The notes under the pieces are model-generated. The model was not told the origin of the DNA and searched no databases. It saw nothing but the letters and a program-made list of their open reading frames with translations. DNA of 21,081 nucleotides from Acidimicrobiaceae bacterium (lineage in GTDB: Bacteria > Actinomycetota > Acidimicrobiia > Acidimicrobiales > Bog-793): NCBI GenBank assembly GCA_003136185.1, contig PLDN01000119.1, forward strand, positions 44,598 through 65,678, read 5' to 3'. Shown here in pieces: positions 1,030 through 20,109 of this stretch (positions are counted from its first letter, which is position 1; the number at the start of each line of letters is the position of its first letter). The position numbers were made by a program, and so were the translations under genes.

Positions 1030-1638
1030 ATGAGCACTTTGCACTATGAGGACAGCCAAGTCGTCATTCACAAGATTGTCGTCGGCCCCTATGACAACAA
1101 CGTCTTCGTCGTGCAGTGCCGCGAGACCGGTGACGCGCTCCTCGTCGACGCCGCCAACGAGCACGAGCAGCTGCTCGAGCTCTGCCAGAGCCTCGGGGTC
1201 CGCCAGATCGTCGAGACTCACGGCCACTGGGACCACATCCAGGCGATCCCGCAGCTGCGGGAGGCCGGTTACGAGGTAGCGGTGACGGCGGCCGACGCCG
1301 GCATGCTCCCCTCCTATGACCTGTTGCTCGAGGACGACATGGTCTTAGAGGTCGGCCGCCTGCGCCTCGGCACGATCCTCACGCCGGGCCACACGCCCGG
1401 TTCCATCTGCTTCCTCATCGAAGGATCGCCGGTCCTGCTCTCCGGAGACACTCTTTTCCCAGGTGGCGCGGGCAATACGAAGTCAGATCTGGGCGACTTC
1501 CCGACCATCATGGAGTCGATCGACCGGCGGCTGTTCACGCTCCCCGCCGAGACCCTCGTCCTACCGGGCCACGGCCTCGACACCACGATCGGCACCGAGC
1601 GCCCCCACCAGCAGGAATGGCTCGACCGGGGCTGGTAG
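1030..1638 (+). CDS. MBL-fold metallo-hydrolase (glyoxalase II / hydroxyacylglutathione hydrolase-like)
   Basis: 202 aa with the THGHWDH (HxHxDH) zinc-binding motif and downstream His/Asp ligands (TPGHTPGS, LPGHG). A strong RBS, AAGAAGGAGG, sits 6 nt before the ATG. It is transcribed divergently from the acyl-CoA dehydrogenase. Confidence 0.8.
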   Translation: MSTLHYEDSQVVIHKIVVGPYDNNVFVVQCRETGDALLVDAANEHEQLLELCQSLGVRQIVETHGHWDHIQAIPQLREAGYEVAVTAADAGMLPSYDLLLEDDMVLEVGRLRLGTILTPGHTPGSICFLIEGSPVLLSGDTLFPGGAGNTKSDLGDFPTIMESIDRRLFTLPAETLVLPGHGLDTTIGTERPHQQEWLDRGW

Positions 1639-1705: not shown

Positions 1706-2464
1706 ATGTATGGCGTGACCGCGGCAACACCCCTCTTGCAGGTCGACGACCTTCACGTCGAAGTCGAAGGCTTCGAGATCCTGCGCGGCGTCGACCTCAC
1801 CCTCCCGGTCGGCGAGCTGCATGCCGTCATGGGCCCGAATGGCTCGGGCAAGTCGACGCTCGCCAACACGATCGCCGGCAGCCCCGGCTACACCGTGACG
1901 AAGGGCCGAGTCCTCTACCAGGGCGAGGACGTCACGTCGTGGCCGGTTGACGTTCGGGCGAAGGCGGGGATGTTTCTCGCGTTCCAGTACCCCGAAGAGA
2001 TCCCGGGCGTCCGCGTCTCGCAGTTCCTCCGTCAGGCCGTCTCCGCACGACAAGGCACCGACATCTCGGCCCTCGAGGTCCGCGTGTCACTCATGGAGTG
2101 GATGAAGCGTTTGGAGATGGATGAGAGTTTTGCTTCGCGCTACTTGAACGAGGGCTTCTCGGGCGGCGAGAAGAAACGCAACGAGATCCTCCAAATGGCC
2201 CTCCTCTCGCCGGACCTGGCGGTGCTCGACGAGACAGACTCCGGGCTCGACGTCGACGCTCTGCGGGTGGTCGCGCAGGGCGTGAGAGAGGTGCGTGCCG
2301 AGAAGCCTGAGATGAGCCTCCTCCTCGTCACCCACTATCGCCGGATCCTCGACGAGCTCAAGCCGGAGAAGGTGCATGTGCTCGTCGCTGGACGGATCGT
2401 CGAGACCGGCGGGCCCGAGCTGGCCGAGCGCCTCGACACCGAGGGATACGAGGGCCTCGGCTGA
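1706..2464 (+). CDS. sufC: Fe-S cluster assembly ATPase SufC
   Basis: 252 aa with Walker A GPNGSGKST, the ABC signature FSGGEKKRNEILQ and Walker B LAVLDETDSGLD; the protein resembles SufC end to end. The start could be ATG 1706 or GTG 1715, and the RBS is weak. Confidence 0.9.
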   Translation: MYGVTAATPLLQVDDLHVEVEGFEILRGVDLTLPVGELHAVMGPNGSGKSTLANTIAGSPGYTVTKGRVLYQGEDVTSWPVDVRAKAGMFLAFQYPEEIPGVRVSQFLRQAVSARQGTDISALEVRVSLMEWMKRLEMDESFASRYLNEGFSGGEKKRNEILQMALLSPDLAVLDETDSGLDVDALRVVAQGVREVRAEKPEMSLLLVTHYRRILDELKPEKVHVLVAGRIVETGGPELAERLDTEGYEGLG

Positions 2465-3708
2465 TGGAGGAGCTCGACCCGGTCGCGCTCCGCAAGGAGT
2501 TCCCGCTCCTCGAGACGCGCCGACGACCTGACGGGAAGCGGCTCGTCTACCTCGACTCGGCCTCGTCCTCCCAGCGCCCCTACCAGGTGCTCGAGGCGAT
2601 GGACACGTACTACTCGACGACGCACGCCAACGTCCACCGCGGCGTGTACGCGATCGCAGAAGAGGCCACGCGTCAGTTCGAGGAGGCCCGCGCCAAGGTC
2701 GGCCGTTTCGTCGGCGCACCGAATCCGGCAACCGAGATCGTCTTCACGAAGAACGCCACCGAGGCGCTCAACCTCGTCGCGCATTCCTATGGGCGCGGGC
2801 GCCTTGGAATGGGCAAGGCCGTCCTTTTGACCGAGATGGAGCATCACGCCAACCTCGTCCCGTGGCTCATGCTGGCCGGCGAGCGCGGGACCGAACTGCG
2901 GTACCTGCCCATCACCGACTCCTACCAGCTCGACCTCTCAGACCTGGACAAGCTCGTCGACGGCGCCGGCGTGGTCGCAGTCTCGGCCATGTCGAACGTC
3001 CTCGGCACCGTGAACGACCTCCGCCCGATCGTCGAGGCGGCGCACGCTGCTGGGGCCGTCGTCGTCGTCGACGCCTCGCAGCTCGTTCCGCACCGGGTGG
3101 TGGACGTGGCTGCGATCGGTGCCGACTTCGTCGCCTTCACGGGGCACAAGATGCTCGGGCCGACCGGCATCGGCGTCCTCTGGGGGCGGGAGGGGTTGTT
3201 GGAGGAAATGCCGCCGTTTCTTGGCGGGGGCGAGATGATCCGAGATGTGCGCCTCGACGGGTTCACGACGAACGACATCCCTTGGAAGTTCGAGGCCGGT
3301 ACGCCGCCGATCGCCGAGGCCATCGGTCTCGGGGCGGCAGTCGACTATCTCGAGTCGGTCGGGCGCGAGGCCATCGCCGCCCACGAGCGGGCGCTGACCT
3401 ACCAGGCGATCGAGCTGTTGACCGACCGCCACGGAGACGACATCCGGATCTTCGGCCCTGGGCCGGACGACCCCAACCGCGGCGGTGTGATCTCGTTCGC
3501 CTATCGCGACATCCACCCGCACGACCTCGCGCAGGTGCTCGACTCATCGGGTGTGTGCGTGCGCGCCGGCCACCACTGCGCGAAGCCGCTCATGCGTCGC
3601 CTCGGCGTGTCGGCGACCGCTCGAGCCTCGCTATACCTGTACAACGACGAGGAAGACGTGACCGCCTTGTCCGACGCGCTCGCCAAAGCCGGCGAGTTCT
3701 TCGGCTGA
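2464..3708 (+). CDS. sufS: Cysteine desulfurase SufS (class II aminotransferase, PLP-dependent)
   Basis: 414 aa with the PLP-lysine region FVAFTGHKMLGPTGIGVLWGR and the catalytic-cysteine region RAGHHCAKPL. Its ATG overlaps the sufC stop (TGATG), which suggests translational coupling. Confidence 0.9.
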   Translation: MEELDPVALRKEFPLLETRRRPDGKRLVYLDSASSSQRPYQVLEAMDTYYSTTHANVHRGVYAIAEEATRQFEEARAKVGRFVGAPNPATEIVFTKNATEALNLVAHSYGRGRLGMGKAVLLTEMEHHANLVPWLMLAGERGTELRYLPITDSYQLDLSDLDKLVDGAGVVAVSAMSNVLGTVNDLRPIVEAAHAAGAVVVVDASQLVPHRVVDVAAIGADFVAFTGHKMLGPTGIGVLWGREGLLEEMPPFLGGGEMIRDVRLDGFTTNDIPWKFEAGTPPIAEAIGLGAAVDYLESVGREAIAAHERALTYQAIELLTDRHGDDIRIFGPGPDDPNRGGVISFAYRDIHPHDLAQVLDSSGVCVRAGHHCAKPLMRRLGVSATARASLYLYNDEEDVTALSDALAKAGEFFG

Positions 3709-3742
3709 GACTGCCAACTCGCTCAAGGAGAGCCCCGCCACC

Positions 3743-4246
3743 ATGTCAGGCCTTGAAGACCTCTACCGTGAGATCATCCTCGACCACTACCGGTCACCGA
3801 GGAACCGTGGCGAGCTGCCGGTCCCACCCGCCCAGAGGGTCGAGGGGTTCAACCCGCTCTGCGGGGACGAGGTCGTCGTCTTCCTCGAGTTCGCCGACGG
3901 AGTCGTGAAGGACGTGAAGATCGCCGGCCAAGGGTGCTCGATCAGCCAGTCGTCTGCCTCGATGATGTCGGCCGCGGTGAAGGGCAAGTCGATCGAGGAA
4001 GCCCGTCAGCTCATCTCGTCTTTCAAGGCGATGATGTCGATCCACGAGCAGGCGATCGGCGGAGACGGCAGCGATGGCGAACGGGCCGAGGCCAACATCC
4101 CGCCCGACGGGCTCGGCGAGCTTGCCGCCCTGCAGGGCGTCGTGAAGTTCCCAGTGCGGATCAAGTGCGCCACCCTCTCGTGGAACACGCTCGCACAGGC
4201 GCTCGACGAGGCGACAGCGGGCGTCGCAGCCGACGGCGCGGCCTGA
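3743..4246 (+). CDS. sufU: SUF-system Fe-S scaffold / sulfurtransferase SufU (NifU/IscU-like)
   Basis: 167 aa with LYREIILDHYRSPRN, NPLCGDEV, GQGCSISQSSASMM and the C-terminal KCATLSW, the conserved Cys/Asp ligand pattern of SufU. It carries the SufU-specific insertion (GGDGSDGERAEAN). The RBS AAGGAGAG lies upstream. Confidence 0.85.
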   Translation: MSGLEDLYREIILDHYRSPRNRGELPVPPAQRVEGFNPLCGDEVVVFLEFADGVVKDVKIAGQGCSISQSSASMMSAAVKGKSIEEARQLISSFKAMMSIHEQAIGGDGSDGERAEANIPPDGLGELAALQGVVKFPVRIKCATLSWNTLAQALDEATAGVAADGAA

Positions 4247-4249
4247 GGT

Positions 4250-5101
4250 TCAGCCTCCGAAGTGGTCGTTCATGAGGCGAGTGACCACCTGAGGATGCTC
4301 GAGGGTCAACATGTGGCTGCCCTCGTCCACGTATTCGAGACGGGCGCCGGCGATGAGCCTTGCGTACTCCTCGCCGACGGCGTTCGGCACTAGCCCGTCC
4401 TTCCGCCCGACGATGACGAGCGTCGGAGCCGTGACCCGACCAAGTCGCCGCGGCATCTTCGGGTTGTGGAAGTAAGGGTTCCACCCGAGCTTTGCAGCGG
4501 CGGCCATCGACTCTAAGAACGGCCGGACCATCTCGAAGGGGACCGCGGCGATGTCTTTCGGCCCGAGCGACCCGAGCAGGTTCATACCGGCTGCCACGGG
4601 ATGCGTCTGGTCCGCGAAGACCTCGGCGGCGAGCTCGTCGAACTTGCGACCGAACAGTTCCGACATCGGTGATCCCGGGACATAAAGGCCGACGGCGTTG
4701 ATGAGGGTGAGGCTTCGGACCCGCTCGGGGTGACGCCAAGCCAGCTCGGCCGCCAGCCAACCGCCGAGGGACATGCCGGCTACGTGGGGCGGGTTGTTGG
4801 CGCCGAGACCCAAACGATCGAAAACGTCGAGCGTGTGGTAGACCGCGTCCTCGATGTCGTCGATCTGGTCGAGACCTTCTGATCCCGCAAAGCCGGGCAG
4901 CATCGGCGCGTAGACGGCATGATCGGCCGCGAGGTGGCCGAGGTACTCGGCCACCTCGTTCGAGCCTGTCTCGCCGCCGGACGAGTGCAGGTAGACGACC
5001 GGAATCCTCGAGGGGTCTCCGCCGCGAGTGAGCTGGACGGCACCGACCGCTGTCGGGAATCGCTCGGTCACGAGCTCGGTCGACGATCCGATTGCGCTCA
5101 C
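4250..5101 (-). CDS. Alpha/beta-fold hydrolase
   Basis: 283 aa with the nucleophile elbow GMSLGG (GxSxG), HSSGG in the oxyanion region and a C-terminal His (EGSHML). The GTG start at 5101 overlaps the stop of the upstream LLM gene (GTGA). The gene is convergent with sufU, only 3 nt separating the two stop codons. Confidence 0.8.
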   Translation of the reverse strand: MSAIGSSTELVTERFPTAVGAVQLTRGGDPSRIPVVYLHSSGGETGSNEVAEYLGHLAADHAVYAPMLPGFAGSEGLDQIDDIEDAVYHTLDVFDRLGLGANNPPHVAGMSLGGWLAAELAWRHPERVRSLTLINAVGLYVPGSPMSELFGRKFDELAAEVFADQTHPVAAGMNLLGSLGPKDIAAVPFEMVRPFLESMAAAAKLGWNPYFHNPKMPRRLGRVTAPTLVIVGRKDGLVPNAVGEEYARLIAGARLEYVDEGSHMLTLEHPQVVTRLMNDHFGG

Positions 5102-6264
5102 GGGTGTGCTCCCGTCGCGACTCGGCGCTCGGTGCCGGGAAAGCGCGCCCGGAGCGCGGGCGCGACCTCCGTCGCGAACAATTCGAGATTGCGGCGCGTG
5201 TCGTCTGCCGGAAGGGTTCCGAGCTGGAAGAGCCCGAGCAGGTTGCCGACCCCGAGCCGCTCGACGTTCTCGGTGAGTCGCTCGAGCACCGTCTCAGGCG
5301 AGCCGACGATGGCGTACTGGCCCTCGATCACTTCGTCCCAGTCCTCGAGGTACTCGGCAAAGGTGCCGATCCCCTTCATCATGCTTTCGAGCGAACGAAT
5401 CGAGGTATACCCAGGCGGCGAGATCGAGATCCCGGGCAGGAGTCGTTTCACGAAGTACCAGAAGTGTTTCTCGTAGCGGCGGCGAGCCTCCTCGTCGGTA
5501 TCGGCAATGAAGATCGGGACGAGCCAACCGAGCTGCAGCGGGTCGGCCTCGTAGCCCTCCTTCTCGCACGCCTCACGCATCAGGTTGAACATCCGCTCGA
5601 ATACCGAGATGTGGAAGTACGGGATACCCATGTAGGCGTAGTGATGGCGGGCGACGAACTCGAGCGTCTCGAGCGAGCCGGCGCCCGGGATCCACACCTC
5701 GGGATGGGGCTGCTGGACCGGACGCGGCCAGGAGTTCACGTACCGGATCCGGTAGTGCTTGCCGATGAACTCGAACGGGCCGGGTTCGGTCCACGCCTTG
5801 ATGATCAGGTCGTGCGCCTCGGAGAAACGCTCGCGCGCCTGAGCAGGATTGATCCCGAATGAGTAGTACTCAGGCCCACCGCCGACGACCATGCCGGCGA
5901 TCAGGCGGCCGCCCGAGATGCAGTCGATCATGGCGAACTCTTCGGCTACCCGCGTCGGCGGGTCGTAGAGCGGGAGAGCGTTGCCGACGACGGCGATCCT
6001 CACGTGGCTCGTCTGGCGGGCGAGGATCGAAGCCATCAGGTTCGGCGAAGGCATGATGCCGTAGGCGTTCTGGTGGTGCTCGTTCACGCAGACACCGTCA
6101 AAACCGAGCTCGTCGGCGTAGATCAACTCGTCGAGGTATCGGTTGTATATCTGGGTTCCGAGACCAGGGTCGAACAACTCGTTAGGACAGGTGATCCATG
6201 CTGGCCCGTCGTAATCCGACGGGAGCCCGGGGTAGGGCATCAGATGGAAGCTGAACAGTCGCAT
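5098..6264 (-). CDS. LLM-class (luciferase-like) flavin-dependent oxidoreductase, possibly F420/FMN-dependent
   Basis: 388 aa; MRLFSFHLMPYPG...ELGFDGVCVNEHHQ...IAVVGNALPLYDP... is the typical bacterial luciferase-like TIM-barrel signature. ATG at 6264 with the RBS AAGGGGGAG 8 nt upstream. Confidence 0.85.
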   Translation of the reverse strand: MRLFSFHLMPYPGLPSDYDGPAWITCPNELFDPGLGTQIYNRYLDELIYADELGFDGVCVNEHHQNAYGIMPSPNLMASILARQTSHVRIAVVGNALPLYDPPTRVAEEFAMIDCISGGRLIAGMVVGGGPEYYSFGINPAQARERFSEAHDLIIKAWTEPGPFEFIGKHYRIRYVNSWPRPVQQPHPEVWIPGAGSLETLEFVARHHYAYMGIPYFHISVFERMFNLMREACEKEGYEADPLQLGWLVPIFIADTDEEARRRYEKHFWYFVKRLLPGISISPPGYTSIRSLESMMKGIGTFAEYLEDWDEVIEGQYAIVGSPETVLERLTENVERLGVGNLLGLFQLGTLPADDTRRNLELFATEVAPALRARFPGTERRVATGAHP

Positions 6265-6297
6265 TTCTTGTCTCCCCCTTGGTCCGCCCTCACCCTA

Positions 6298-6319
6298 ACT
6301 GACAGGTCAGTCAGGTGAC
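6298..6319. promoter_or_regulatory. Overlapping palindromic operator-like site upstream of the LLM/hydrolase operon
   Basis: ACTGAC-ag-GTCAGT (6298-6311) is a perfect 6-bp inverted repeat. It overlaps GTCA-gg-TGAC (6310-6319). The site lies ~35-55 nt upstream of the LLM ATG (6264), where a promoter or operator would sit. Confidence 0.45.
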
Positions 6320-6348
6320 CGGAGCGGATTCCTTCGTGCGCTCGCATT

Positions 6349-6390
6349 CGAGGCCCGAAGCCGAAGCCCGAAGCCAAGGCCCGAAGGCCA
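6349..6390. repeat. Tandem imperfect heptamer repeat (G)CCCGAAG x4-5; on the minus-strand transcript it gives an array of C(UUCG)G tetraloop hairpins
   Basis: The plus strand reads cgaGGCCCGAAGCCGAAGCCCGAAGCCAAGGCCCGAAGGCC, immediately 3' of the kinase stop codon (6392-6394). The minus-strand RNA contains GGCCUUCGGGCC (a perfect 4-bp stem with a UUCG loop) plus three further CUUCGG units. Confidence 0.6.
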
Positions 6391-6391
6391 G

Positions 6392-8769: not shown

Positions 8770-11649
8770 CTACGTGTTCAGCTGGTCGAACTCCTCTGGC
8801 GACATGAGCACCGTCCGCGCCTTCGAGCCCTCCGAAGCGCCCACGATGCCACGTCGCTCGAGCAGGTCCATCAGCCGGCCGGCGCGAGCAAACCCCACCC
8901 GGAGCTTGCGTTGAAGCATCGACGTGGAGCCTAGTTGCGAGCGCACCACTAGCTCCATGGCCTGCGAGAGCAGCTCGTCATCGTCGTCGTCGAAGGTCGA
9001 GGCTCCGCCCGGACCTGCTGACTCTTCGCCCTCGACGCCGTCGAGGTAGCGGGGACCGCTCTGCCGCTTCCAGTGCGCTGCGATGGCCCGAACCTCTTCT
9101 TCGCTCACCCATGGACCCTGTAGCCGCCGCGGGATGCTGGAGGACGCCGTCAACAGCAGTAGGTCTCCACGACCGATGAGTCGCTCGGCGCCGGGCTGGT
9201 CGAGGATCACGCGGCTGTCAGCGAGCGAGGAGACCGAAAAAGCGAGCCTCGAGGGGACGTTCGCTTTGATCACTCCGGTGATGACGTCAACAGATGGCCG
9301 CTGAGTCGCGATGACGAGGTGGATCCCAACTGCCCGTGCCATCTGAGCAATGCGGCAGATCGAGTCCTCGACGTCGCGAGCGGCGATCATCATTAGGTCG
9401 TTCAACTCATCGACGACGATCAGAACGAACGGCAGGCGCGAATGCTGGCGCTCCTCCCCCGCACTCGCTATCCGCCGCCGGCTCTCAGCCACAGCCTCAG
9501 CCGCCGACACCGAAGCCGAGCCAAATTCGCTAACAGGAATCCCGCTAGGAGCCGCCACAGGCACATCGGCCGGGTCATACGCTTCATTAGCGCCGCTCGA
9601 GCCGGCCGCGACGATTGTGTCGGAGCCGACGACCGTTTCTACGGTCGTCGGTGCCGAGACATCGTCGCCGTCGCCGCCATCGCCATCGCCATCCAGCAAA
9701 GGATCGTCGAACTCCCCCCGGTCAACCGCCGCGTTGTACCCCGTGATGTCGCGCATCCCGACCTCGGCAAGCAGGTCGTAGCGGCGCTCCATCTCGGCCA
9801 CTGCCCAACTGAGGGCATTCGCGGCACGCTTGGGGTTGACCACGACCTGGGTGAGCAGGTGCGGGAGGCCGTTGTACTGACCGAGCTCGACGCGTTTCGG
9901 GTCGACGAGGATGAGACGCACCTCGTCGGGGGTCGCCCGCATCAGGATCGAGGAGATGACCGAGTTGATGCACGACGACTTACCGGCGCCGGTCGCACCG
10001 GCGATGAGGATGTGGGGCATCTCGGCCAGGTTCACCATGACCGCCCGGCCGGCGATGTCCCGCCCGAGCGCCACCTCGAGAGGATGCGTCGCCCTACGAG
10101 CCTCCGTGCTCGTGAGGACGTCCCCGAGCGTGACGAGCTGACGCTGCTGGTTGGGCACCTCCACGCCGATTGCGGACCGGCCCGGGATGGGGGCGAGGAT
10201 GCGCACGTCCGGCGAGGCCATCGCGTAGGCGATGTCTTTCGCGAGGTTCGTCACGCGGGCCACTTTCACCCCGGCGCCGAGCTCCAGCTCGAAACGAGTA
10301 ACCGTCGGCCCAACCGTGAATCCCACCAGGTGCGTCTCGACGCCGTGGGCCGCTAGCGCACGCTCGAGGACTCTGCCGCGGGACTCGACCTCCTTGCGGT
10401 CGTGCGTCTGGTCCTTGCTCCGCTTCAGGATCTTGAGCGGCGGGAGCTTCCAGTTGCCACCCGACACGGCGACCGGGAGCGCCAGCTGTTCGACCTTGCC
10501 GGCACCGTCCGCATCCGTCCGACCGGCGGCCAGCATGCCCCCCGCCACGATGGGAGACACCCGGTCGGCCTCGCCATCGGTCGGGGCATCGACGCCTGCC
10601 ACCGCGGCATCGGCGCCGGCGCCGAGCCCTGCCGCCGCTGCCGGTGTAGCGATGGCAGGCACTCCGAGCCTTGTCCCGAGCGCCTCCTCCATGGCCACGT
10701 CGTCGAGCAGGCCCACGGCCGAAGGCGACCCATGCGGGGCGGACCCGATCGTCTCGTCGTAGCCAGTCATGGCCTGAACCGAAGGCTCGCCGGGGCCGTC
10801 GGGATCGAGCGCCGGTCGCCCGATAACCGACGTCCAAGTGGCAGAAAAGGCGCTGCACAGCCCTCCCCAGAGCCCGCGGGCTCCGATGCGGAGCACCTCT
10901 GCGACCCGCCCACCTAGGAGCCAGCAGCAAAGGGCGAGCGCAACGACGCTTATGACGACACCGGCGCCCGCTTGGCCGATGCCCTTCGCGAGACCACCAG
11001 CGATAACCGAGCCGAAGATGCCACCTGCGCCGCCGAGACGGTGCCAGGTGGCCGACGTCGGCGGGTTCCCCCCGAAAAGGTCGGCGAGGCCGGCCGAGGC
11101 GAGAGCCAGGGTCGCCACCGAGCAAACAGTGCCGAGAGCGCCCCAGACGGAGCGCTGCGCGATGAGCAGGACGCCTCCGACGATGAGGCCCACCTCGACC
11201 ACGTTCATCCCCCAGCCGAGCGTGCGGGCACCATTGGTGAACAGCCACGATCCGGCAGGTCCGAGCGCGTGGAAGGAGACGCCGAGCGAGATCAGCACTC
11301 CCGCAACCACGAGCAGCAAGCCCCAGGCGTCGTCGGGCTGGGCGCCGACCAGATCGAGCATGCGGTTCAAGGTGCGTTCGAGCGCGCCGGGACCGCGAGC
11401 AGCGGGCTTGCGGGAGGGCGCAGCGGGTCGCGCCCGTGAAGCCGACGACGCCGACTTCGCCTTCGAACCTCGGGCTCCGGACGTGGCCGAACCCGAACGC
11501 CCCGTCTTCCGCGTCGATGGTTCCCCCGAGGTGCGGGTGCCGGAGCGGGACGACGAGCCTGTACCCGTCCGACCGGCGGACCGCGACCCGGCAGCTGATT
11601 TCGTCACTGCCACAGTGCCACCAACGCTAACACCAGCCCCACCACTCAC
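8770..11649 (-). CDS. ftsK: DNA translocase FtsK (FtsK/SpoIIIE family)
   Basis: 959 aa. The N-terminus is S/G/T/R-rich and low-complexity. Four or five TM helices and a linker follow. The motor domain carries Walker A GATGAGKSS, Walker B LIVVDE and IATQRPSVDVITG. The C-terminal gamma winged-helix domain reads LLSQAMELVVRSQLGSTSMLQRKLRVGFARAGRLMDLLERRGIVG. The start is GTG at 11649; which start is used is uncertain. Confidence 0.9.
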   Translation of the reverse strand: MSGGAGVSVGGTVAVTKSAAGSRSAGRTGTGSSSRSGTRTSGEPSTRKTGRSGSATSGARGSKAKSASSASRARPAAPSRKPAARGPGALERTLNRMLDLVGAQPDDAWGLLLVVAGVLISLGVSFHALGPAGSWLFTNGARTLGWGMNVVEVGLIVGGVLLIAQRSVWGALGTVCSVATLALASAGLADLFGGNPPTSATWHRLGGAGGIFGSVIAGGLAKGIGQAGAGVVISVVALALCCWLLGGRVAEVLRIGARGLWGGLCSAFSATWTSVIGRPALDPDGPGEPSVQAMTGYDETIGSAPHGSPSAVGLLDDVAMEEALGTRLGVPAIATPAAAAGLGAGADAAVAGVDAPTDGEADRVSPIVAGGMLAAGRTDADGAGKVEQLALPVAVSGGNWKLPPLKILKRSKDQTHDRKEVESRGRVLERALAAHGVETHLVGFTVGPTVTRFELELGAGVKVARVTNLAKDIAYAMASPDVRILAPIPGRSAIGVEVPNQQRQLVTLGDVLTSTEARRATHPLEVALGRDIAGRAVMVNLAEMPHILIAGATGAGKSSCINSVISSILMRATPDEVRLILVDPKRVELGQYNGLPHLLTQVVVNPKRAANALSWAVAEMERRYDLLAEVGMRDITGYNAAVDRGEFDDPLLDGDGDGGDGDDVSAPTTVETVVGSDTIVAAGSSGANEAYDPADVPVAAPSGIPVSEFGSASVSAAEAVAESRRRIASAGEERQHSRLPFVLIVVDELNDLMMIAARDVEDSICRIAQMARAVGIHLVIATQRPSVDVITGVIKANVPSRLAFSVSSLADSRVILDQPGAERLIGRGDLLLLTASSSIPRRLQGPWVSEEEVRAIAAHWKRQSGPRYLDGVEGEESAGPGGASTFDDDDDELLSQAMELVVRSQLGSTSMLQRKLRVGFARAGRLMDLLERRGIVGASEGSKARTVLMSPEEFDQLNT

Positions 11650-18651: not shown

Positions 18652-20109
18652 TCACGAGAACGCGATCGCCTCGCTCACCGAGTCGTGCGGGTCGTCCTCA
18701 TTTTGTGCCAGCACCTCACATCGTGTGGTCGTGTCGCAGTTGAGTGTGCTGCTCGGAATGGCCTTCGACACGTGCAAGCCGGTGTCTCCTGCCCCCGTGG
18801 CGTCGGCCGTCACCGCGCTTACCTCGAAGCAGGCGAGTTCGCCGGCTAGCGATGCGCATTCGGCCACCTCTAGCTGCGCACCGGCAGGGAAGTTGCTCAC
18901 GGCAACCGAGATGATGCTGCCGTCGCTGATACCCGTCGCGGGAGTCACCGATATGCCGGGCACGACGGGGGACCCCGAGGCGTTGAACGAGATCGAGCGG
19001 CTCGTCGAGTACCACCCGTCCAAGTCGTCCTGCACGAAGATGTCACACCGTGCCGTGTCACAACTCACCTTCGCGCTCGGGGCCTCCAACACGGGGAACT
19101 GAATGCTGACGTCTCCGGCGGAGGTTGCGTTGGTGTACACCAAATCGGGTGCGCAGGCCGCCACGCCGGCCACGCACTCCTGCACGGTCACCTCGTCGTC
19201 GGGTGCAAAGCCTGACACCGTCACGGTCACGATCTGGCCGTCGACCAGACCAGACCGCGTGCTGACTGTCTCGCTCGGCGAGAGCGCCTTGGCCTTCGGA
19301 TTGAAAGAGATGGGAGCAGAAATCGCAGACCCAGGCACGCCGGAGTACGTCGTCAAGGCACACCCGGGCGACTTCTCGCAGCTGACGGTCACCTGCCCAT
19401 GGCCGCTCGGATGTTCGATGTGGCTGCTGACGCGATAGGTGCCCGAGCTCTGACCCCTGGCGTTCGTCTGGAGGAAGGCGTCGTATTGGCGAAAGTCACA
19501 CTGATTGGTTGTCGGCTGGCCAACCGCCTCACACTCCCTCAGCTGAAAGCTGGAATCCGGTCTGAAGTTTTTGCCTGAGACAGTGACCGTCTCGTTCGGG
19601 GTCAAGTTCTTCGAGCTCGACAACGACAGGGTCGGGACGAGCGGCTTGGCCTTCGGGTTGAACGAGATCTTCTCGCCCGTCGACTGTCTCGCTGGGTCGA
19701 CGGCGTCCCCGGCTGCCACGATACAGCCCGGCGTCTTCACGCAATTGATCGTCGTCGAGCCGACGACGATGTCCTGGGAGACCTGGAAAGGCTCCGAGAA
19801 TGACCCAGTCGCTGAGGTGTCGAAAGTCGTCGCGAACTGCGTGTTCTCACATTGCGCCTCGGCCTTCGCCCCCGGCTCGCACTCGAGGATGCCCACATAG
19901 GTCTTTTTCAGAAAGTGGTAGCCGTGGACCGTGATTATCTGGCCGGACGCGAGGTTGGTGGCCTGACTCAGGTGGAGGGATGCCTTCGAGCTCGTCACCG
20001 CCTTAGCTGCCTCGGCTGCCTGCGCCAACTGAGCGCTCGTCGCCACCGACGACAGCGCCAGCAGTACTGCCACTACCCCGCCAATCTTGTATCGCGAGCT
20101 CTTCCGCAC
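18652..20109 (-). CDS. Secreted protein with four tandem neocarzinostatin-fold (NCS apoprotein-like) domains
   Basis: 485 aa. The N-terminal signal peptide MRKSSRYKIGGVVAVLLALSSVATSAQLAQA is followed by four repeats of ~110 aa. Each has the pattern LxxG(Q)xVTVxGxxF...ECx(8-12)C...(D)xxG.F...(I/V)xCx(5-6)C...ISF(N). The two Cys pairs with spacings of ~10 and ~5 mirror the C37-C47 and C88-C93 disulfides of neocarzinostatin/macromomycin/actinoxanthin apoproteins. ISFNPKAK linkers join the domains. GTG start at 20109 with the RBS GGGGGGAGAGGA. Confidence 0.7.
   Translation of the reverse strand: MRKSSRYKIGGVVAVLLALSSVATSAQLAQAAEAAKAVTSSKASLHLSQATNLASGQIITVHGYHFLKKTYVGILECEPGAKAEAQCENTQFATTFDTSATGSFSEPFQVSQDIVVGSTTINCVKTPGCIVAAGDAVDPARQSTGEKISFNPKAKPLVPTLSLSSSKNLTPNETVTVSGKNFRPDSSFQLRECEAVGQPTTNQCDFRQYDAFLQTNARGQSSGTYRVSSHIEHPSGHGQVTVSCEKSPGCALTTYSGVPGSAISAPISFNPKAKALSPSETVSTRSGLVDGQIVTVTVSGFAPDDEVTVQECVAGVAACAPDLVYTNATSAGDVSIQFPVLEAPSAKVSCDTARCDIFVQDDLDGWYSTSRSISFNASGSPVVPGISVTPATGISDGSIISVAVSNFPAGAQLEVAECASLAGELACFEVSAVTADATGAGDTGLHVSKAIPSSTLNCDTTTRCEVLAQNEDDPHDSVSEAIAFS

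Follow-up and report, generated by a model that had tools for sequence, protein, structure and literature searches.

The sufC-sufS-sufU locus

The stretch of DNA analyzed here (21,081 nt of contig PLDN01000119.1, in the following the window) comes from an uncultured Acidimicrobiales bacterium from peat and carries on its forward strand three adjoining genes of the SUF system: sufC, ending at 2464 and starting at a called ATG (1706) or at a GTG (1715); sufS (2464-3708), encoding a type II cysteine desulfurase; and sufU (3743-4246), encoding a zinc-dependent sulfurtransferase. The three products score above the curated equivalog cut-offs of their profiles, with 324.5 bits for SufC against TIGR01978 (cut-off 212.8), 522.5 bits for SufS against TIGR01979 (cut-off 475.1), and 143.3 bits for SufU against TIGR01994 (cut-off 92.5), and a ratio of nonsynonymous to synonymous substitutions (dN/dS) of ~0.2 between the window genes and their relatives indicates purifying selection. 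The ATPase motifs of SufC are intact in the window protein (GPNGSGKST, FQYP, FSGGEKKR, LDETDSGLD, and VTHY), and the Walker A, Q-loop, signature, Walker B, D-loop, and H-loop motifs are kept across 91 sequences of this SufC paralog, which is linked to sufS-sufU and is termed SufC' below. SufS matches PDB 8D8S and 5XT5 at 406-408 bits, and its pyridoxal phosphate-lysine motif GHKMLGP and catalytic-cysteine motif GHHCAKP align to 8D8S. SufU aligns to Thermus thermophilus 2QQ4 and Bacillus subtilis SufU (1XJS/5XT5), and its Zn ligand motifs CGD, GCSIS, and KCATLSW, together with the insertion before the last cysteine, align to 2QQ4 and 1XJS.

The initial annotation had described a metallo-beta-lactamase (MBL)-fold gene followed by sufC-sufS-sufU, with a TGATG overlap and a 34-nt spacer, and both coordinates and profile scores agree with this. 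The sufC stop codon (TGA, 2462-2464) overlaps the sufS start (ATG, 2464-2466), by which sufS is translationally coupled to sufC', and the sufS-sufU spacer (3709-3742) contains a Shine-Dalgarno sequence, AAGGAGA, at 3725-3731. The stop codons of sufU (TGA, 4244-4246) and of a convergent alpha/beta hydrolase gene on the reverse strand (4250-5101; stop 4250-4252) are just 3 bp apart, leaving no space for an intergenic terminator; a generic terminator scan of the window yielded nothing useful, and Rfam and tRNA scans of the window gave no matches.

The same annotation had reported sufB, sufD, and sufR to be missing nearby, and this absence extends well beyond the window. No sufB, sufD, sufR, sufT, Rieske, or second sufC gene was found in the 21-kb window by tblastn (E up to 10); neither a PF01458 (SufB/D) gene nor a second SufC is found in the 8.3 kb before the window or the 9 kb after it; and the stretch from 10 kb upstream of sufC to ~26 kb downstream of sufU is free of sufB, sufD, sufR, and sufT, the upstream reach being given by contigs encoding the exact SufC protein and the downstream reach by contigs encoding a protein near the right end of the window. 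The window SufC, therefore, has neither sufB nor sufD adjoining it, which is a trait of its context and not of its biochemistry. The exact SufC protein is listed in 37 collection blocks (ENA, JGI, the NCBI metagenome-assembled genome (MAG) GCA_003132285.1, and Logan), and 24 contigs were read. These come from different assemblies, differ by 0-3 nt per gene, and all show one order: acyl-CoA dehydrogenase (ACAD, reverse strand), MBL, sufC, sufS, sufU, hydrolase (reverse strand), and luciferase-like monooxygenase (LLM, reverse strand). An assembly problem hiding sufB and sufD immediately upstream, which had been raised as a concern, is ruled out by this common layout on independently assembled contigs.

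Organization of the suf genes in related Acidimicrobiales

The best 80 genome matches to the window SufC all belong to Acidimicrobiia, mostly Acidimicrobiales MAGs, at 61-79% identity. Mapping the suf layout of the relatives by tblastn gave 88 distinct related loci, in 75 of which sufC' is followed by sufS and then sufU, the remainder being cut by contig ends. In 46 of the 88, a second sufC (sufC_B), whose product is 46-52% identical to that of sufC', is found downstream of sufU at a median distance of 2.1 kb (range, 0.2-7.7 kb), on the opposite strand in every case. This sufC_B is the last gene of a unit sufD-Rieske ferredoxin-sufC_B, beyond which sufB forms a separate unit followed by a small open reading frame (ORF) of 111-117 aa; in most peat/soil populations, an opposite-strand enoyl-CoA hydratase gene lies between sufB and sufD. 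Loci retrieved independently by SufD or SufB queries have the same architecture, and the only sufS and sufU seen beside scaffold genes in the relatives are those of the sufC'-sufS-sufU unit. The full two-SufC architecture is present in the cultured Aciditerrimonas ferrireducens (GCA_042431745.1, 2759-11003), in which the ends of sufC_B and sufU are just 25 bp apart. The distance between the suf halves is variable, since 13 loci with 9 kb or more of sequence downstream of the sufC' start show no SufC_B in the retrieved DNA, which reached up to 10 kb to either side; the window is one of these, as are L012 and L027, its two closest relatives.

The initial annotation had offered two alternatives, namely that the operon was split or that this was a second suf locus, paralogous and partial. 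Both were half right, and they are not alternatives: across the order, the canonical operon is found in three units, and the window SufC is one of two co-occurring SufC lineages with ~50% identity, but the locus does not amount to a redundant duplicate of the suf genes. Full-text literature searches turned up neither the two-SufC arrangement nor the 26-bp operator presented below for Acidimicrobiia.

Several further observations concern individual loci. In a low-GC population (L134, GCA_027387375.1, GC 0.565), the SUF layout is still more dispersed, with sufB alone (10001-11398) between moaC and an aldo-keto reductase gene; there, no sufD or sufC was found within 10 kb of sufB and no strong operator match. 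Two peat Acidimicrobiales populations encode a SufB of 858-873 aa with an insertion (L104, 6072-8693; L120, 6179-8755), which in L104 has a weak LAGLIDADG match and so is probably an intein; inteins are known in mycobacterial SufB. The small ORF that accompanies sufB (111-141 aa, no Pfam match) was seen in L109 (8677-9015), L096 (8466-8801), L126 (12949-13287), L134 (11510-11935), and A. ferrireducens (L263, 4312-4659); it is usually directly 3' of sufB, is found two genes later in L126, is present even beside the lone sufB, and may encode an undescribed SUF accessory protein. Finally, a record labeled Bifidobacterium breve (L040, CAMCTW010000091.1) carries the Acidimicrobiales synteny of ACAD, MBL, sufC'-sufS-sufU, and sufC_B and is probably mislabeled or the result of a binning error.

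A putative palindromic operator shared by three suf units

Alignment of the DNA upstream of sufC' revealed a palindrome with the consensus ATTTCCaCTAC-N4-GTAGtGGAAAT. In the window, it reads ATTTCCCCTACGCCCGTAGTAGTAAT, that is, the half-sites ATTTCCCCTAC and GTAGTAGTAAT around GCCC, and occupies positions 1663-1688 between the MBL gene and sufC'. A position weight matrix (PWM) built from the sites upstream of sufC' matches the window once, at 39.1 bits, all else scoring below 12 bits, and a degenerate IUPAC pattern also gives 1 match versus 0.00 expected in shuffles. Across 1.39 Mb of related loci, the PWM gave 122 matches of at least 18 bits, all just upstream of sufC', sufB, or sufD (10 of them assigned by coordinates, nine to sufD and one to sufB). 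The operator is found upstream of sufC' in 86/90, of sufB in 19/22, and of sufD in 17/33 cases, and upstream of none of 42 Rieske genes and none of 43 sufC_B genes. In A. ferrireducens, it precedes sufB (2759-2784) and sufC' (10978-11003). As an independent check, a public metagenome collection was scanned with the sufB-type operator pattern, giving at least 120 matches. Among the 120 listed, 79 directly precede a sufB-type gene; of the other 41, 37 are on contigs with at most 48% GC, where this A/T-containing pattern matches by chance, 3 are on high-GC contigs ending right after the site, and one (L187, 57.5% GC) belongs to neither group. Judging by its sequence and distribution, the 26-bp palindrome is a putative suf-regulon operator of Acidimicrobiales.

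The operator also stands in a conserved relation to a promoter-like box and to the start codon. A TANNNT box follows the operator at a distance of 13 nt in 28 loci, with the start codon 6-7 nt further, and in other loci the last operator bases form part of the -10 box. The window has the operator, 13 nt, a -10-like box TAACAT on the forward strand (1702-1707), 7 nt, and GTG 1715; the called start of sufC, ATG 1706, falls inside this predicted -10 box. From this conserved geometry, the true start of sufC is probably GTG 1715, giving 249 aa rather than 252, the sufC'-sufS-sufU transcript would be leaderless, and its promoter would lie inside the 67-bp MBL-sufC' spacer, where an occupied operator would block it. 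A generic sigma-70 scan called no promoter at the sufC' spacer.

The MBL-fold call for the upstream gene (1030-1638, forward strand) holds, with 79.3 bits against PF00753. The gene falls in the YcbL/GloC-like glyoxalase II family: its best PDB match is 2XF4 (YcbL-type glyoxalase II, 87.6 bits), with ETHE1 at 69.9 bits, and it scores 88 bits against the GloB equivalog TIGR03413, below the cut-off of 200.8, so that by its profile and structure matches it is a short YcbL-like MBL-fold protein, not a GloB equivalog. A same-strand MBL gene lies 5' of sufC' in 60 of 83 loci and directly adjoins it in 19 of those, whereas a PWM scan of the related loci found the operator upstream of the MBL gene in 0/58 cases. 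Seen from its operator context, the MBL gene is a frequent neighbor of sufC' outside the operator-controlled unit, and co-transcription of the two, which the initial annotation had considered, is not favored given this absence and the conserved operator and -10 box in the intervening spacer. A second case of an MBL-fold gene beside suf genes is momL of Muricauda olearia, an MBL-family lactonase gene that is reported to cluster with suf genes (PMC5484670). An MBL-SufC fusion was looked for among long SufC-containing proteins and rejected, these proteins being SufR-SufC, SufC-SufS, plastid-targeted SufC, or gene-calling artefacts.

Two co-inherited SufC lineages

SufC' and SufC_B both keep every ATPase motif. 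Mean identity is 71% within SufC', 66% within SufC_B, and 50% between them. The two copies diverge in a correlated manner over 630 genome pairs (r = 0.83), which fits long vertical co-inheritance, and in 97% of the pairs it is SufC' that is better conserved. SufC' is also closer to characterized SufC proteins, scoring 282 bits against T. thermophilus SufC 2D2E, its best PDB match (SufC_B, 203 bits), and 234 bits against E. coli SufC (SufC_B, 176-197 bits). Of these two paralogs, which occur order-wide, the window encodes the one that is better conserved and nearer to the canonical type. A SufC phylogeny had been suggested in the initial annotation; in a neighbor-joining tree with Tsukamurella, Microbacterium, Nonomuraea, Streptomyces, Priestia, E. 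coli, and Thermus sequences and archaeal SmsC as the outgroup, SufC' (94.5% bootstrap), SufC_B (100%), and canonical Actinomycetes SufC (100%) are each monophyletic.

Seventeen positions are fixed differently between SufC' and SufC_B. Among them are the position preceding the Q-loop glutamine, the three that precede the signature motif, and one in the D-loop. In SufBC2D, one SufC protomer is placed on SufB and the other on SufD, the Q-loop of SufC contacts SufB/SufD, and the D-loop mediates SufC dimerization (PMC6006206). The fixed differences between the two SufC sequences are thus compatible with specialized partners without proving them. A mirror-tree test of co-evolution, with 14 genomes only, gave a signal too weak to assign partners.

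Two proteins join SufC to other SUF components. P0272 (470 aa), from a representative library at 50% identity, has a SufR-like winged-helix and Cys-rich domain fused to a full SufC ATPase, the SufR-like part being 27% identical to Tsukamurella SufR over 200 aa (E = 1e-12). P0312 (573 aa) has SufC in-frame with a SufS that lacks its first ~55 residues, and could be a true fusion or the product of a one-base frameshift at an overlapping stop/start such as TGATG.

Discussion

We consider it likely that the window carries one of three co-regulated units of an ordinary, split SUF system with two SufC paralogs. In such a system, the sufC'-sufS-sufU unit would supply the sulfur relay and one ATPase: SufS would take sulfur from cysteine as a persulfide, and SufU would pass it on, with SufB as the scaffold recipient. 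The scaffold, of the SufBC2D type, would come from the two further units, sufB and sufD-Rieske-sufC_B, which in the lineage of the window would lie on another contig or at a distance of more than 10 kb (upstream) or 26 kb (downstream). The 26-bp operator is predicted to overlap the promoters of all three units, and this common operator suggests that they are co-expressed through one unlinked regulator, most likely a repressor sensing Fe-S status. In the window, the operator and -10 box would drive a leaderless transcript that starts around GTG 1715 and does not depend on the MBL gene. SufC' and SufC_B may pair as a heterodimer. Repression and complex formation are the steps of this scheme that we infer.

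The canonical order from which such a split could have arisen is seen in Tsukamurella (sufR-B-D-C-S-U-T) and in part in Microbacterium (Rieske-sufC-sufT). The arrangement fits an origin in two steps: sufC would have been duplicated at the D|C|S junction, and sufC'-sufS-sufU would then have been inverted, which would produce the convergent pair seen in most relatives; later rearrangements would have separated the suf halves in some lineages, that of the window included. Traces of such a rearrangement may be found 3' of sufU. In L019, L025, and L033, the hydrolase and LLM genes are followed directly by sufC_B-Rieske-sufD, whereas in the window thrB stands after the LLM gene, and neither the window nor L027 has sufC_B past it, which places a synteny breakpoint right after the LLM gene (6265-6391 in the window).

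Several results weigh against this reading. First, sufB, sufD, and sufC_B of the window organism were not found when SufD and SufB of a relative were searched against 5.8 billion proteins, and L012 and L027, whose SufC', SufS, and SufU are on average 81% and 74% identical to those of the window, also have no sufB, sufD, or sufC_B within 10 kb. Nine SufB/SufD candidates for the window organism (P0029, P0089, P0095, P0123, P0106, P0119, P0224, P0239, and P0118) were assigned to other populations by sample identifiers, GC content, or tetranucleotide usage and rejected. Among the matches listed from the metagenome operator scan, no contig came from samples holding the window organism, and the best compositional match (L189) could not be tied to it. 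Second, peat-clade sufD units mostly have no recognizable operator (overall, 17/33 have one). Third, no candidate regulator gene emerged: tblastn with Tsukamurella SufR found no SufR homolog in 1.4 Mb of suf-centered loci, which also have no SufT homolog, and a scan of the loci for the RGRP motif of SufR returned off-frame artefacts only. Fourth, the neighbor-joining tree gives no supported relation among SufC', SufC_B, and canonical Actinomycetes SufC, and in the absence of a supported deep relation both a duplication and an ancient transfer could account for the two lineages. The SUF scaffold is essential, and from this and from the layout of the relatives we infer that sufB and sufD are present elsewhere in the genome of the window organism.

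It is possible, if doubtful, that the split goes deeper, in that SufC' and SufC_B would be non-interchangeable, one working on SufB and the other on SufD (e.g. SufB-SufC' plus SufD-SufC_B in an obligately asymmetric scaffold), and that the operator would be read by a suf-unlinked regulator, perhaps of a new kind. The contrary view, that SufC' is a redundant spare, with either SufC able to fill both positions of SufBC2D and the split functionally meaningless, seems to us unlikely. It would agree with the intact ATPase motifs of both copies and with the multiple suf copies known elsewhere, such as sufC2D2B2 of Paenibacillus polymyxa (PMC8038749) and sufC2 of Methanosarcina acetivorans (PMC10500019), but both copies are kept order-wide in every locus with enough sequence, even as SufC' differs by ~30%, and are under purifying selection, and the 17 fixed differences include partner-contact and dimer-contact regions (PMC6006206).

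We regard as very improbable that SufC', SufS, and SufU form an autonomous machine working without SufB and SufD, in which the ATPase would gate persulfide transfer or SufU would serve as the scaffold and the window lineage could have dropped linked sufBDC genes. The translational coupling of sufC' to sufS, the fusion-like P0312, and the failure to find sufBD for the window organism are what speaks for such a machine. However, P0312 could be a 1-nt frameshift artefact, the same operator precedes sufB and sufD in the relatives, SufU has the ligand set of a Zn-sulfurtransferase rather than scaffold features, and SufC' is the very copy nearest to SufC proteins known to bind SufB/D (2D2E and E. 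coli). Least credible of all is a recent acquisition of sufC'-sufS-sufU as a foreign partial suf locus. In its favor, SufC' and SufC_B do not form sister groups in the tree, and the closest solved structure to SufC' is from Thermus. Against it, the unit matches its flanks in GC content and tetranucleotide usage, is present in all 88 related loci, and diverges in step with SufC_B; no outside grouping is supported (SufC' with Thermus, 0.5% bootstrap), and the nearest named neighbor outside the clade is also from Acidimicrobiia.

The protein families involved are well known and bring no new biochemistry; the novelty lies in how the genes are organized, namely in a split into three units that is stably inherited throughout the order and in which the ATPase is duplicated, with one copy per half. 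In E. coli SufBC2D, the two SufC protomers are identical, so their roles on SufB and on SufD are genetically inseparable. Two diverged, co-inherited SufC genes would make the SufB-side and SufD-side roles testable, with A. ferrireducens as a cultured carrier, and if the scaffold is indeed asymmetric, Acidimicrobiales would be a natural system with genetically separable SufBC2D ATP sites. The putative operator provides a handle for the regulator and for the remaining Fe-S regulon in a little-studied, environmentally abundant actinobacterial class. From an annotation point of view, a lone sufCSU on an Acidimicrobiales contig should not be taken as an incomplete or degenerate SUF system.

Other genes of the window

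The window opens with an ACAD gene on the reverse strand (3-914), truncated by the window end. On the far side of the suf genes, the hydrolase gene is followed by the LLM gene (5098-6264, reverse strand), past which lie thrB and genes for a D-Ala-D-Ala carboxypeptidase, ftsK, a large LuxR-type regulator, RNase J, dapA, and flotillin. A neocarzinostatin-family (PF00960) match lies in a 485-aa secreted protein, apparently built of repeats, encoded on the reverse strand at 18652-20109.

Comparison with known SUF systems

The closest reference is the actinobacterial operon sufRBDCSUT (Rv1460-Rv1466 in Mycobacterium tuberculosis). It shares with the Acidimicrobiales system the families SufB, SufD, SufC, type II SufS, and Zn-SufU and the local order C-S-U; a Rieske ferredoxin gene precedes sufC in Microbacterium, as it does in Acidimicrobiales, and both systems have a dedicated palindromic operator. 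On the other hand, the Acidimicrobiales genes form three units rather than one, include two SufC paralogs rather than one, and have no linked sufR or sufT, and their operator differs in sequence from the published SufR sites CAAC-N6-GTTG and ACACT-N5-TGTGA. Operators of SufR, a COG2345 [4Fe-4S] repressor, have been described as palindromes flanked by A/T tracts (bioRxiv 10.64898/2025.12.26.696629). The window operator is like these sites in having a palindromic core with short A/T tracts on both sides (ATTT and AAAT, 18 bp apart in DNA of 67% GC) and in overlapping a predicted suf promoter, but it is unlike them in its core and spacing (CTAC-N4-GTAG) and in being repeated before three units; no SufR gene was found near the suf genes, and the likeness is one of resemblance only.

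The sufCDSUB operon of Bacillota (Bacillus subtilis; Priestia, L142) likewise uses a SufS-SufU relay instead of SufE and has sufC first in the unit that contains sufS-sufU, but it differs from the Acidimicrobiales system in having sufD between sufC and sufS, sufB after sufU, and a single SufC. More than one SufC per genome is also found in Paenibacillus polymyxa (sufC2D2B2; PMC8038749) and Methanosarcina acetivorans (sufC2B2; PMC10500019), where, however, the additional SufC is accompanied by additional scaffold genes of its own, making up a second, possibly redundant system. In Acidimicrobiales, by contrast, scaffold and sulfur relay each occur as a single copy, and the ATPase alone is doubled, with one copy in each half of the system.

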